Counted from the stretch's first letter, positions 1,400 to 22,187 are shown. The stretch is 34,104 bases of DNA from Folioceros fuciformis (GCA_049999805.1 JBNGIO010006379.1:251614-285717), one strand, 5' to 3'. A program made the numbers and translations. The notes: a model not told the origin generated them from the letters alone.

Positions 1400-4300
1400 T
1401 TAGTGACAATTTAGATCTTTCTCTACAGCAAGAGAAAGGCCAGAGTTCTTAAATTCTACATGTAGTGCTTGCGTTGTCGATGGTTCTTGTTTTCCCAATA
1501 TACCTTTGAAGACTTGAGCAAATATAACTCTCGATTCAAACAATGGCAAAAATGTGCAAACAATAGATGAGAATAGTGCCCAAATGATGGAGATAACGAC
1601 CCATAGCGTGAAGTATTTCTGTGAACAAGAATAATGTAATTGAAATTAAGCATCAAATAAGTGTACATAATGTAGCTGCGTCTATTCATACACGAATGAC
1701 TTTGGCATGTAGAATGACTTACCTCCGAAAAGACACCTGCCGGTAGGGCAAGGAGAGGCCAAACTATGCAGGTGATGAAAATGATTCCCAATGCAATGAA
1801 TAGGGTGAGTCGAAAATATCGCTCCATGGCTTTCTGGTCGTTCTGATCGTATTGTGATATGTCGATGCCATCCATCACCTCTATCTGTTGGAATCTGCTG
1901 CATACGTGGTACCGGGGTTAGCAGCTTAGCCATCTGAGGTTAGAGCTTTGGGTATCCACATGTGTGTCAAAATCCAGAGTTCGCACCTTCCGTAGCTGTC
2001 AGTTTTGTCTGGATTCAGAAGAGTCCAAATGAGAATTACAACTGCCGACCCAATGAGAGAAACCAACGTTCCAGTCATAGTAGGACCAAGCTCCTGAAGG
2101 CTGTGTTGGACGCTCAATTCATGATATGCCCACTGAGTTGATACATTGCCCAACACACAGAAACACATGTACCGTGAATGGGCTCTTCAAGCTGAGGGTG
2201 CAATGTCAAAGAGAACCCAAAGGGCTGAGGCATCACCTGGGCATGACACAACCATGTAGTGATTCCTGCAGCCTGCCCAGCCAAAGCTCCTAGTATGACT
2301 GCTCCTGAGGGGACCGCTGGCCACATGAGCATCATAGTGAGAGGGGCAACGGAGGAGCAGGCAAGGATGCCTATCACCAGAAACAGGAAGTTGACGTCCA
2401 CGTCTATCTGCAAGTCATCCGTCAGTCGTGACCAGGAAAATTGCAGGCCATCTTTCACACCTTCTCTAGCGGCCAAAAGCAGTAATCCGTTTTACTGTCA
2501 AAGATTGGGGGATTCAGATCTCACCAGATGCAAAACACAGGCAAGGCCACCCATGGAGAGTCCGAAGAGAATCAGGGCCCATCTCGAAACCAACAGCATC
2601 TCTGTTCCCGAAGCTTGTGGTTTCAGGTATGCCTGCACAGATTTACAAAGCTCATGCCACCCAAACCACTGCTTCCTGCACCATCGCCTTGATTCTCCTC
2701 CTAGTTCGAGCTCACCTTGTAAATGTCGTATGTGAAGATTGAGCTCATGGCGATAAACTCTGCTGAGCCGGCCGAGGTTACCGCCATGAAAACCATACTC
2801 AACACGAGTATCACCCCTCCTGTCATGCACCGAGCGTCATGACGCGAGAATAACACTAATTTCAAAGTTCAGACAAATAGATTCTGGTAGCCAAGTAGTC
2901 CCTTAATACCTGATCCTAGGACGCATTGTGCAGCAGCTACTGGCACCAAGCCAGAATTAGCTTCCAGGGATGTGAGGGGAAGGTCCAAGGCCCTAGCTGA
3001 CAATCCCAGGGAAGTTGCCAGAGCAAATGGGATAGGTAGCCACAAGAATGATCCCAACAGATAACCCTTGTAGGAGGCTTCCGGAGTGGCAGCAATGGCT
3101 CCCTTCAGATAAGTCAAGGGTTAAAACTGTGGGTCAACATCTGCAACAACTGAAGCCTACTTCGAGGGCTTTATGCCAAGTACCTGCCAATAGGCTTGAT
3201 CTGCCCAAACTGTTCCGAAGGAACCAGCTAGAATGTTCACTCCAAACTGCAAGCCTCCTCTGCTGAACATGGTCAGGTAGCTACCACCTCTGTTGCCTGG
3301 GCACGCCATCAGCCAACACTTCAGCTGCATGTGTCAAGCCTGGCAGGAGAACGTAGAGGTATAATGTTTTGCCACGAGGCAGGTGCTTTACCTGAAACTG
3401 GAACAACATGTGCATACTCTGTGAGGTTTTGCCAAACTTTGCTAATGCTTCCTATTGGCTCTTTGTTGGATGCGTACACCTGCCATTTTTAACTTTGTCA
3501 CTGAAACAAGCATGCAACTGCTTCCAGGCAAGCCTATGCACAGTAGATCATAGTTCAACTTACTGTGAAGCAGAAGACATTGAGTGTGATGAAGATGATG
3601 ACTGTGTGCAGGTACGACGATGTAAATGTTGCTTTAAGCCCGCCGGCCACGGTATAAACAATAACGCTCACGGGAATCAACATCAAAGCTGCATACACGT
3701 TCATGCCTGCATTTCACTCATCCAGTTCAGAACGCCAGCAGGATTTCTTTGTCAGTAGCCATGCCACAGTTTCATAAGTACCTGTTGATGCCACAAGCAC
3801 ATTCCCTGCTCCAAGAATAAGCAAAGCGCTGACGATGAAATTATTTAGATAGCATAGGTACATGAACACCTGGAACACCGCGACAACGTGACAAATGCAT
3901 TCCATCGTATATGTGTGTAGACTAAAAAACACATCGGCGGCAAAGCCAGCTCAACTTAAACAAGTGCCAAATTGCGCATGTACTTACAAAACCGGCTGTG
4001 TGACCCCAACGGCGCCTAACCAGCTCCACGACCGTGTGCCCCATTGGTGCTCTGCGTTTGATCTGCAGAGCCACTGTACTAAACAAGAAATACTGTACAG
4101 CTGCACCAGCCCCATACCTTCACACAATTTGCGATGGTGTTAAGCTCCGGGCCCCAAATTTTCGAAATTTCGCGGCAATCGTGATAGCGTCTTGAACAGA
4201 TTCTCACCAGAATCCTCCGCTGATTCCAAGTTTGAAGGCTTCATTGCTGGATTGCAGCAGCGTTGACACCCTGCAGAGACGACGTCCATCGCAGCAGAGA

Positions 4301-4708
4301 AAATCATTTGTCCGCTGATTATGGCCAGCAGTGCAGAACCGTGAGCTTACCATGTTCCCCGGCTGACGATGTCAACCGCCGTCAGTCCGGTTTTGATGTT
4401 TCTCCCCGCTGTGTTGAATTCCTCCGAGTGGTAGACGCTGCCAGCGAACTTCTTATCCAAGTGCATGATCAGAGTTGTGACCGCCGCAAAAAACAACCCA
4501 AATCCACAAACAATGCCGTACCCAACACTCTGCAAATTCGGCAACGGCTCAAGTTACATCACTTGCTACGAGGTGTCTAGATTTCCCCAAGAGCCTGCAC
4601 TGCTAGCTGCTAAGATCTTACTTGGGGGAAGATTGCATTGCCATTGAAGAAGCTGGTTCGATTGTCAAATTGGTGCAACCCAAAGAGATTGGGTTCGCCG
4701 AGAGGCAT
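1400..4708 (-). CDS. DUR3: DUR3-like urea/H+ symporter (sodium:solute symporter superfamily), divergent, 15 exons
   Basis: The spliced reading frame, joined by GT-AG introns, runs [40 protein letters not shown]...[15 protein letters not shown]...STLLQSSN...[18 protein letters not shown]...GGSYLTMFS...YKGYLLG...[11 protein letters not shown]...TYDIYK...[19 protein letters not shown]...DLNCH*. ATG at 4708, TAA at 1402-1400. No frameshift found. Confidence 0.88.
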
Positions 4709-5416
4709 TGTGACGAAGAGACAGACGGATCATACATCTGCATGGGCTTTATCCATATTTCGTTCGAGTGAGAGGAAAGCTTTGGGTCATTCCCACCTTG
4801 ACAAGTTCTGGATGGCCGGTGTAGAGTGCAGGTCACAAGGAGTCTCCGTGACGAAAACGTAGTATCTGTGAACATACTGCTTTTCCATTCGCGTTAGAGG
4901 TCCAGGTTAGCGATCGACTGTCAGTCGGGATCATGTGCTGCAGGTACCAGTCGCTGTCAAGACGACTCCATGCAGAAATGCTTATTATGTACGTAGATGG
5001 GACACAGATCCCACATTTCTAACCCAAGTTTCCACTCCTCTGTCGAAGAGCTAACTTTCCTCCCCATCAGCGAGGCCACAATTAGCAAGTTTTTCTTCAA
5101 GGCCATGCAGAGCTTCCGCAAGGCCGCGCCAAACAGTTGGAGGGGTTTCACAAGGGCATGCAGAAGAGCAGCCACTTCTGCCTAAACAAACTCACACTTA
5201 AGAGACAACTCTATTATGCACTATACCAAAACTGTCCGACTACTAAAGCCGCTTGCCTCCGTAGTTGTTTAAGTCGTCATTTCTTTTGAAACCAGCTCCC
5301 CCAAATTCTTAGTTCGCTTCACAAGATTGAGACAGTTACTCTCTGCCACCAGCACCAATGAAAAAAAAAGGCCCGGAGAAAGAGTGTGCAGTAGTTTCCG
5401 TGCTGTATACGACAAT

Positions 5417-20260: not shown

Positions 20261-21680
20261 TGCCTTGAACAGACTGGGCAAAGTGCGGGCCAGCATCGCA
20301 GCTTCCGGGAAGGCGGCAGTCGAAAGGCGGGACCCAAGCCGGGCCATTATCTGCTGCCAGCCCCGCTACCCGTCGCCCGCTCATATGTGATACGCGGACA
20401 CACAAGCCGGTTGCGGCCCGGCATCCGGGGTACGCAGACGCGTGTACGCGTGAGTGGCCAGAACCATAACCTGGAAACGGGAACCGGAACCGTCGCCCGG
20501 AAACAGCATAACAAAATCCACGGCAACCGTGGATGGCTCATGGCAGGCCCAGAAATATCACCCAACTCGGGCTGGCTGGACTCGGAGATCCACAGCCAGG
20601 GGTGCAGTTCCACAAGCTCACCTCGTTCGCAATTCAAAACATGAGGCCAAGTCAAAGGGGCCTCCGAGGCGCCCCATCCCGAGCCCGAGCCCCAGAGAGT
20701 ACTTGTATCGAGATGCAGCAGATGATGCGAGCTCAAATGTATGCATTTGTATATTCCTCCACCCCAAGCTCAAAGCTGGCAGCTGGGAGGGCAAGCGTGA
20801 TTTCCCAAACATGCACAGCGTTTCTTAGCACTCGATTCTCCTGTGTTCGTGTTGGATTGGGAGGAAGGAAGGCGGGAGGGGGGAGTCGGAGCCGGGAATC
20901 GCTAACCGCTGAAAGCCGACGTTGACTCCCAGTGCCCTGGCTCTGGCTCTGGCCTCTGGCCGGCGGGGCCCGGGCCGGCCCGTCCCGACCCGGCCCTCCC
21001 CTCCCCTCCCCTCCCATGCTTGAATGGGAGCGGAGCTAATCCTGGAGCTTAGCTTAGCGCGCGTGTTAAAAAAGCGACTGGGCTGGTGGAAAGTCCCGGA
21101 TAAAAGGCCACAGGCAAGAGTTTTTATGAAGGGATCGTGGCGTGGGAGACGGGTGTCAGATAGACAGCGGAGCCGGCTGGAAGGCTGCCGCCATCTCCTC
21201 CACTCAAGTCACAAAATACAGTATAGTCTGGAGGGTACATGGCGTAACTGGTGTATGTTTGCCCAGTGCCCAGCAGTCAGCAGTCAGTGAGTCAGAAAGT
21301 GGCCGGCAGTCAGGAGTGTAGACTAGTCCAGTACTGGTTAGTGGTGGGGAGCTCTGGTCATGGGATTGGCGCAATCTGTGCCCACACTTGTGACTTTTCC
21401 ACACAGTCACACCCTGGACAGGCCGTCGGGATCGGGATCCAAATCCACACCCAAGTCCAAACCAATAGCCGGCAACAACGCCACCTCCGTCGGCGCATGC
21501 CAACTCACTGCGAACAAGCTACCAGTAAGTAAAACTGTATCCCTTTCAGTGAAAATGTGTTCGTGCTCCATGTGTAGAGCATTCCCACAAGGACTTGTTG
21601 CTATGAATCGTGAACATCGGTTTGATCACGGAGAACGCGTACTCTTATGTGATACCAGAACGAAAGTCATGAGAAGTACG

Positions 21681-22052
21681 TTCATCGAGCACAAAGAAGT
21701 TCAAAAAAGATATGCTGTCCATCGAGCACAAGGAAGTTCAAAAAAATATGTCGTCCATCCAGCCCGAGGAAGTTCAAAAAGATATGCCGTCCATCGAGCA
21801 CAAGGAAGTTCAAAAAGATGTGTCGTCCATCGAGCACGAGCACGAGGAAGTTCAAAAACATATGCCGTCCATCGAGCACAAGGAAGTTCAAAAAGATATG
21901 TCGTCCATCGAGCACGAGCACGAGGAAGGTCAAAAAGATATGCTATCCATCGAACACAAGGAAGTTCAAAAAGATATGTTGTCCATCGAGCACAAGGAAT
22001 TTCAAAACGATATGCCGTCCATCGAGCACAAGGAAGTTCAAAAGATGTGCCG
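21681..22052. repeat. Minisatellite, 10 copies of a 36-bp unit (two 42-bp variants)
   Basis: Consensus TCCATCGAGCACAAGGAAGTTCAAAAAGATATG(C/T)CG. Copies 5 and 7 carry an extra GAGCAC, giving a 78-bp higher-order duplication. Confidence 0.95.
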
Positions 22053-22187
22053 CACAATGATGTGACAAGGCGTGAACCATCTGGTCAGATGCAAAGCAAT
22101 GACAACCACATGGAGAACAAAGTGATGACAACCACATCGAGAACACCTAGTGCATTTATAAGATTAAATAATAGAACCAACTTTGGA

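Follow-up and report, generated by a model that had tools for sequence, protein, structure and literature searches.

A DUR3-like gene of Folioceros fuciformis with an altered binding site belongs to an apparent second DUR3 family of seed-free plants and may carry a compound larger than urea

Introduction

What does a DUR3-type transporter carry once residues that contact urea have been replaced, and how does a plant come to own such a gene? The question is raised by a 34,104-nucleotide stretch of the Folioceros fuciformis genome (GCA_049999805.1 JBNGIO010006379.1:251614-285717; the whole stretch is called the window here), which holds on its minus strand a DUR3-like gene of 15 exons at 4708..1400. 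In the published picture each vascular plant has one DUR3 and all of these are urea carriers (PMC3355718). An earlier reading, made from the sequence alone, had regarded the gene as an intact, neofunctionalised paralogue with a shifted specificity or a sensor role. We report that the encoded protein, of 667 amino acids as predicted after a transcript-based acceptor correction, belongs to the broad DUR3 subfamily of the sodium:solute symporter family, that it is a member of what is apparently an undescribed second DUR3 family in seed-free plants (DUR3-B), and that a shifted specificity is plausible from its residues.

Results

The family assignment is carried by the exon 9 frame, which matches only the three DUR3 sequences in the Protein Data Bank (PDB; E 9e-18 to 1e-16), and by the full-length relative P0001 returned by the exon 9 search, which scores 70 bits against PF00474 (SSF; cut-off 22.8). 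The predicted model of a fern member (P0127, 62% identical to the window protein) has a predicted local distance difference test score (pLDDT) of 88 and a template-modelling (TM) score of 0.86 to AtDUR3 9j7d, so that the DUR3 (LeuT-type) fold is predicted for this clade member; a search of the ESM Atlas returned generic SSF clusters only. Using AtDUR3 numbering, obtained by aligning Selaginella P0105 to PDB 9j7c, we found Q92R, W93G, A96V, A97S, N301I, N305S, W459F and Y461F in the window protein. These changes appear as SRGTW|VST (4364-4351 plus 4270-4261, the codon of the second Trp being split by intron 2), as an altered 19-residue motif in exon 8 and as NFLFL in exon 12. Residues W95, T98, Y117, A121, Q124, T144, H222, T308, D312 and Y315 are kept, as are W338, P342, E402, Y412, S470 and P474. 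The tryptophan sandwich W95/W338 is thus retained as W89 and W318, and D312, E402 and H222, to which proton-coupling roles are assigned (PMC11840088), are retained as D292, E382 and H216, while Y461 and N301 are replaced by F441 and I281. The available text of a maize preprint (10.1101/2025.05.20.653754) names six fully conserved urea contacts, W93, W95, T98, Y117, N305 and W338, four of which are kept in the window protein and two of which are lost through W93G and N305S; the latter, a direct contact, had been overlooked in the sequence-only reading. The three altered motifs noted there are real. The changes are not noise, for the positions concerned are near-invariant among 259 other DUR3-like rows (counting rows with a residue, Y461 in 259/259, N305 in 252/258, N301 in 256/257 and W93 in 226/231). 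With four of the six contacts, no Y461 and no orthology to the canonical group, the window protein would not appear to be a canonical high-affinity urea DUR3.

To place these changes we used P0001 as the next query. With P0001 the best 120 of 981 matches were listed, and with the Marchantia member as query the best 120 of 1930, about 8000 candidates being scored each time; the representative library shows one protein per 50% cluster, the other cluster members being hidden. Clade members came from Adiantum, Ceratopteris, Pteridium, Psilotum, Diphasiastrum, Marchantia paleacea, M. polymorpha (MARPO_0006s0303) and Riccia sorocarpa, followed by Coccomyxa; no named moss, Selaginella, seed-plant or streptophyte-algal clade member stood among the best 120 of either. 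In databases the proteins of the clade go under the names 'urea active transporter' or 'urea-proton symporter', assigned by similarity. The alignment took in 293 of the 464 fetched proteins (at least 370 amino acids) plus three host models, with rows from the representative search excluded except for the Riccia piece, and its 27 land-plant clade rows include near-duplicates. None of these 27 rows has N305 (S in 23, A in 3, V in 1), whereas D312 and W338 are retained in all 27; F stands at position 461 in 24/24 rows with a residue and V at position 96 in 24/24. N305S and Y461F are also present in all four Coccomyxa sister rows. W93 is kept in 21/24 rows, the others being G in the window protein, S in the second odd host copy (L004, below) and F in one row with a seemingly mis-modelled start, and N301I occurs in the window protein only (1/27). 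By this distribution the loss of N305 and Y461F are old clade characters, and W93G/S and N301I are local to the host genome. Position 98 is Asp in 9/24 rows (ferns).

Several variants around the same pocket were seen in other rows. In the fern subclade of P0127, P0128, P0130, P0124, P0131 and P0164 a residue in direct contact with urea is changed (T98D), in the Marchantia members one half of the proton pair is altered (E402Q), and the otherwise near-canonical algal DUR3 of Acetabularia (P0166) has an independent W93G, so that this change arose more than once.

The distribution of the clade, which extends to Ceratopteris, Riccia and Marchantia polymorpha subsp. ruderalis, gave no support to the link with symbiosis that had been raised for the gene. 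The last two are not known to be mycorrhizal. Our literature search, over titles and abstract starts, found no description of a second DUR3 clade, and the supplements of transcriptome and horizontal gene transfer (HGT) papers could list the gene; the Marchantia gene id returned no papers, and the main text of the Coccomyxa genome paper (PMC3446292) contains neither 'urea' nor 'deiminase'.

What these substitutions might do to transport can be gauged from published mutants. Structurally, A97 and Y461 line the outer side of the pocket and W93 its inner side, with N305 beside the ligand (PMC11840088). In Aspergillus UreA, whose positions we converted to AtDUR3 numbering by residue spacing without aligning the UreA sequence, W82A, N275I and Y437A each leave <2% uptake (PMC4077062 Table 1), and the sequence-only reading was thus right that the first Trp, the Asn and the Tyr matter. 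Milder outcomes are given in the available parts of PMC4077062 and PMC9783183 for Y437F (46% uptake, Michaelis constant (Km) 88 vs 26 uM, acetamide inhibition constant (Ki) 102 vs 237 uM) and for N279A (=N305; 100% uptake, acetamide Ki 51 uM). Two of the four changes therefore do not alone abolish urea transport, and because the published Ki values amount to a gain in acetamide affinity of 2.3-fold for Y437F and 4.6-fold for N279A, positions 461 and 305 would tune selectivity toward substituted ligands. In a ScDUR3 background W93A, N305A, T98A and Q124A (AtDUR3 numbering) are mild (PMC11840088), so that the data sets conflict over the first tryptophan, null in UreA and mild in ScDUR3.

Taken with the clade-wide pattern, these residues suggest that the reshaped pocket probably carries a nitrogen compound larger than urea. 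We lean slightly towards a reading in which the window protein, a member of an old second subfamily of DUR3, would still function as a proton-coupled symporter, with a substituted urea or guanidino compound as cargo, acting beside a canonical transporter. As the proton relay (D312, E402, H222 and P474) and the sandwich are intact, protonation of D312/E402 and alternating access would still operate, and the urea-like head of the ligand would stack between W95 and W338, in a head-group site that also keeps T98, Y117, Q124 and Y315. Pocket-wall side chains would have been lost clade-wide at N305S and at Y461F/A97S, and at the inner gate through W93G in this copy, leaving room for a tail; with smaller residues lining the pocket, the proposed ligand would join such a head to a tail. 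Agmatine or N-carbamoylputrescine would be the most likely preferred cargo, failing which citrulline or a short amide, with urea carried weakly at most. T98D in the ferns would fit a cationic ligand.

A hint to the same kind of cargo comes from the algal relatives. At a Coccomyxa-like locus (L021, 1 of 33 loci, 93% to the Coccomyxa protein P0138) the transporter start lies 1.28 kb from a head-to-head (divergent) gene of the agmatine deiminase family (PF04371, E 1.3e-28), in which catalytic-type RD, GHVD and IHC motifs are present. Agmatine deiminase acts on a substituted guanidine and yields N-carbamoylputrescine, a substituted urea. The algal gene pair is a hint that the cargo may be agmatine or a substituted urea. 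The algal deiminase gene (L021 4723-1450, minus strand) shows the variant motifs WPAEW and PYIRD where the host has MPAEW and AWFRD, and may have a shifted specificity of its own. Co-transfer of a deiminase with the transporter, or linkage of the two in the host, was considered and rejected, there being one host locus, on a separate contig. Directly behind the host deiminase gene (L047 4320-5220) stands a long tandem repeat of about 18-base units that is open in several frames.

A number of points weigh against a substituted-urea symporter. Two changes in the window protein have W82A and N275I as their closest UreA counterparts, both of them null (PMC4077062 Table 1), so that the window copy is possibly impaired; conversely, the mildness of W93A and N305A in ScDUR3 (PMC11840088) implies that urea may still pass. 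A second acidic site, which an agmatine tail would want, was not identified in the protein. The deiminase link was noticed post hoc and comes from the single algal locus (1/1) long enough to show neighbours, and the host deiminase, a single match, lies on another contig and is unlinked to the window gene. Transport of a substituted urea by DUR3-B is a prediction from residues and gene context.

Could the window protein instead carry urea with protons at a lower affinity, or under different regulation, as a complement to the canonical copy? Four of the six maize-named contacts are kept, the UreA mutants Y437F and N279A still take up urea as described above, and in ScDUR3 the substitutions W93A, N305A, T98A and Q124A have less impact (PMC11840088). 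The changes in the window protein are, however, stacked rather than single, two of them have null counterparts in UreA, and Y461 is invariant in every one of the 259 other rows. Moreover, the Aspergillus paralogues AN2598, AN7373 and AN7557, which differ at N275 and Y437, are described in the available text of PMC4077062 as without significant urea transport, and the fern T98D fits neutral urea poorly. We consider such a urea symporter possible but less likely, and retain the substituted-urea reading.

The host genome bears on this choice. Three genome searches converged on the same three DUR3-like loci: the window gene, L004 and L005. The last (contig C4854) is a canonical DUR3 of 709 amino acids with 6 introns and all site residues, so that the check proposed earlier, for a canonical copy elsewhere in the genome, was answered with a find, and urea uptake would already be covered. 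L004 (contig C4612) is a second odd gene, intact, of 671 amino acids, with the same 14 intron positions as the window gene and with site changes W93S, N305S, Y315F and Y461F. Between the window gene and L004, over 667 codons, the nonsynonymous distance (dN) is 0.33 and the synonymous distance (dS) 2.8, near saturation, a comparison that speaks of the long term and is blind to recent relaxation; the two odd copies are, on these sequence distances, an old duplication under purifying selection. In L004 (6057-2610, minus strand) T308I is a further change and the intron behind exon 10 is of the GC-AG type; the pocket of L004 differs again from that of the window gene.

Is the window copy itself still functional? 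All 14 introns (75-118 nt) are GT..AG and the single stop is terminal. A 2092-nt contig of sequencing run X1 lacks every one of the 14 introns, which marks it as spliced product and confirms all 14 junctions; X1 is one run from one study, taken for RNA by guess (none is on record as RNA) and possibly from the source sample, and its contig attests the presence of spliced product, not level or tissue. The eight listed contig pieces, including one across exon 2 (4350-4529) with the SRGTW codons, show no difference from the genome, and the sole listed difference in the stretch falls in a tRNA outside the transporter. The complete 15-exon, stop-free frame of the sequence-only reading is confirmed in this way, and a pseudogene or an assembly error was ruled out by the full frame, the spliced contig, the exact exon 2 match and purifying selection. 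That the clade transports while this copy has lost transport, as a sensor or a decaying gene, is nevertheless suggested by N301I, which occurs in the window row alone and matches a null UreA mutation in Table 1 of PMC4077062, by the confinement of W93 loss in well-modelled clade rows to the host's two copies, and by five upstream ATGs that could damp translation. Set against these are the full frame, the spliced junctions and the low dN/dS; the proton-coupling residues, all of which are kept, in a protein with no signalling tail and no extra domain; and the absence of W93 from L004 as well, a loss that is probably old and tolerated given how far the two copies have diverged (dS about 2.8). A loss of transport appears improbable on balance, and the sensor role proposed earlier found no support in a protein of 667 amino acids that keeps its proton-coupling residues and has no extra domain.

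If the gene is functional, whence did it come? We built a quick tree of 80 rows and a mixture-model tree of 49 hand-chosen rows (46 named or own, 3 outgroup), which agree on the placement of the land-plant clade. In the 49-row tree this clade (11 rows) has support 100/100 and three Coccomyxa proteins are its sister (100/98). Five successive starred nodes around it (99/96, 100/99, 97/89, 100/99, 100/98) have core trebouxiophytes as their only other members. Canonical streptophyte DUR3 plus Netrium form a separate clade (100/100), within which the host canonical copy L005 groups with bryophytes (100/97). Inside the land-plant clade the liverworts, the host pair and the vascular plants (92/83) separate as descent predicts. 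In approximately unbiased (AU) tests, whose groups were named after the first tree had been seen and which concern a trebouxiophyte/DUR3-B part with long branches, joining the clade to canonical streptophyte DUR3 was rejected (p-AU 1.5e-6, LG+G4), as was holding 14 trebouxiophyte rows together without the land-plant clade (p-AU 2.7e-42 and 1.4e-40, two models). The notion of a neofunctionalised paralogue of the plant's own DUR3 consequently fell to the first of these tests and to the algal affinity of an old clade; a young duplicate of the canonical gene was likewise ruled out by the trees, the AU test and the lack of shared introns.

Intron positions give evidence of kinship with the algal paralogue that is independent of branch lengths. 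The L021 transporter has 12 introns of 253-647 nt, of which six coincide with introns of the window gene, in phase as well as in position, and none with introns of the canonical copy; between the 14 introns of the window gene and the 6 of the canonical copy, none is shared. The observed sharing arose by chance in 0/200000 draws over all sites and in 57/200000 if one tenth of sites are usable. As a control we compared the agmatine deiminase genes of host and alga, where 3 of the 7 algal introns that were mapped are shared, and shared introns as proof of transfer were ruled out by this comparison with the transporter's 6/12.

We judge it modestly probable that the gene was transferred as intron-bearing DNA from a Coccomyxa-lineage trebouxiophyte before the liverwort/vascular split and was later duplicated here. 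Transfer is the simplest reading because it asks for one event and later losses in place of several pre-split duplicates lost outside the trebouxiophytes. A sizeable possibility, though below an even prospect, is that no transfer occurred and that a DUR3-B duplicate predating the chlorophyte-streptophyte split survived in core trebouxiophytes and seed-free land plants. Intron sharing does not tell the two readings apart (3/7 in the deiminase control vs 6/12), several losses within land plants are evident from the lack of moss, Selaginella and seed-plant matches in the best 120 lists, streptophyte algae are thinly sampled and each search was limited to about 8000 candidates, and for the Coccomyxa/land-plant PIP and GIP aquaporins the authors were unable to tell transfer from descent (PMC3111385). 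Old paralogy would nevertheless make each of the five starred nodes a duplication older than the split, whose product had vanished from every other green lineage; the grouping of trebouxiophytes without the clade was rejected in both AU tests; and the only named streptophyte-algal row, Netrium, is canonical. Transfer from a trebouxiophyte therefore remains our preferred account. A review from 2025 on gene transfer in plants (PMC12448838) names no such case in the passages available and does not contain the word urea. Two other sources were considered and discarded: a viral vector, since none of 14 pattern matches in viral contigs proved to be a relative, and a prokaryotic donor, with only two archaeal DUR3s at 40-41%.

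An artefact, whether algal contamination or an assembly error behind the odd codons, might be suspected since the nearest non-plant relatives are common epiphytic algae and since run X1 holds a further DUR3-like piece missing from the assembly. The gene lies, however, on a 1.07 Mb contig among NDC1, PPR, GST and plant U-box (PUB10_N, ARM_PUB) genes; its introns are of host length (75-118 nt) and not of algal length (253-647 nt); its relatives lie on fern and lycophyte sequences of 101-194 Mb and follow land-plant branching order; and the transcript is identical to exon 2. We regard an artefact as next to negligible. As for the further X1 sequence, an X1 contig matches 32 bases of the window (2723-2754) and continues on both sides into different DUR3-like sequence, which fits none of the three loci and would be either a fourth copy that the assembly lacks or sequence from another organism in the run.

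The exons, all on the minus strand, distribute the site residues as follows. The contig reaches 4836, giving a transcribed 5' leader of at least 4709..4836 with five upstream ATGs, two of which open short frames (13 and 8 codons) that end before the start while three overlap the main frame out of phase; translational control is possible. The coding part of exon 1 (4622..4708) encodes a 12-residue N-terminal motif that is common to the clade and trebouxiophyte DUR3s and missing from canonical plant DUR3. Exon 2 (4351..4529) spans transmembrane segments TM0 to TM1 with Q92R (4361-4359), W93G (4358-4356) and the first two bases of the kept W95; exon 3 (4208..4270) holds A96V, A97S and the kept T98; and exon 4 (3988..4117) keeps Y117, A121, Q124 and T144. 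The introns following exons 3 and 4 are both common to the Coccomyxa-like gene. Exon 5 (3782..3869) is given by gene model and transcript, as is exon 13 (1987..2132), and exon 6 (3564..3706) keeps H222 (3608-3606). In exon 7 (3392..3479) the extracellular loop is without the 15-residue C264-C275 disulfide stretch, which is missing in 27/27 clade rows and also in many algal DUR3s with a canonical site. Exon 8 (3184..3296) encodes TM6 with N301I (3234-3232) and N305S (3222-3220) and keeps T308, D312 and Y315; exon 9 (2910..3102) encodes TM7 with W338 and P342 kept; and exon 10 (2716..2819) encodes TM8 with E402 and Y412 kept. The introns after exons 7, 8 and 10, and that after exon 11 (2525..2632), are again common to the algal gene. 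Exon 12 (2237..2407) encodes TM10 with W459F and Y461F (2383-2381), S470 and P474 being kept. The acceptor of exon 14 (1723..1894) was set by the transcript, which takes the downstream site of the tandem acceptor CAGCAG of intron 13 (1894-1897) and moves the exon start from 1897 to 1894. At the C-terminus, where canonical plant DUR3 has tetramer helices, exon 15 with the stop (1400..1618; transcript over 1440-1618) encodes a short tail that does not resemble the one in the host's canonical copy, but Selaginella P0105, which is canonical, likewise ends in a short tail.

Beyond the transporter, a tRNA-Cys(GCA) lies at 1255-1327 on the same (minus) strand, 72 bases behind the transporter stop. 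Pfam matches across 5400-34104 comprise an NDC1 nucleoporin, PPR, GST, a plant U-box/ARM protein (780 amino acids in one frame), a type IA topoisomerase and a universal stress protein, the window's right end carrying a further ARM frame, and none of the neighbours in the window is a nitrogen gene by Pfam. An imperfect tandem repeat at 21650-22080 is open in several frames.

Discussion

Combining origin and cargo, one may imagine that the land-plant ancestor gained an agmatine or substituted-urea symporter gene, introns included, from a Coccomyxa-lineage terrestrial alga as an organic nitrogen source beside urea, and that the gene is kept to this day and goes on diversifying in bryophytes, lycophytes and ferns (T98D in ferns, W93G/S in the host) but was lost in seed plants; we offer this full scenario as speculative and doubtful. 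If true, liverworts, lycophytes and ferns would have, in a second lineage whose pocket has been rebuilt, a candidate for a hitherto unknown route of organic-nitrogen uptake, and DUR3-B would supply naturally occurring specificity variants of a transporter whose structure was solved recently and which is a target of crop engineering. Transfers from chlorophytes to the land-plant stem are rarely claimed, and the DUR3-B case has a nested tree and is testable; the Marchantia orthologue MARPO_0006s0303 puts a knockout within easy reach.

Among known systems, plant DUR3 (AtDUR3 9j7c/9j7d/9x5u; ZmDUR3 9vim) has in common with the window protein W95/W338, T98, Y117, Q124, Y315, the D312-E402 pair, H222 and P474, but lies in a separate clade and differs in its N-terminus, tail and loop and at W93G, A96V, A97S, N301I, N305S, W459F and Y461F; identity to the host's canonical DUR3 is about 43%. 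The Aspergillus nidulans UreA paralogues are a precedent within the DUR3 family for changes at the N275/Y437 positions in proteins that do not significantly carry urea, although they are fungal and of independent lineage. Saccharomyces Dur3 is reported to carry polyamines (Uemura 2007, as cited in the available text of PMC10753782), which shows this ability in the family, but it has a canonical urea site and is the background of the AtDUR3-numbered mutants. The PIP and GIP aquaporins resemble DUR3-B in their trebouxiophyte and land-plant spread, their shared introns and the transfer proposed for them, and differ in being another protein family for which, in the text of PMC3111385 available, the authors do not exclude descent. 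The closest likeness is to the Coccomyxa 'urea active transporter' paralogues P0134, P0135 and P0138, a sister clade at 52-53% identity to the window protein that shares N305S, Y461F and 6/12 introns but, unlike the window gene, keeps W93, has Q or E at N301 and N at T308, and has a deiminase as neighbour.

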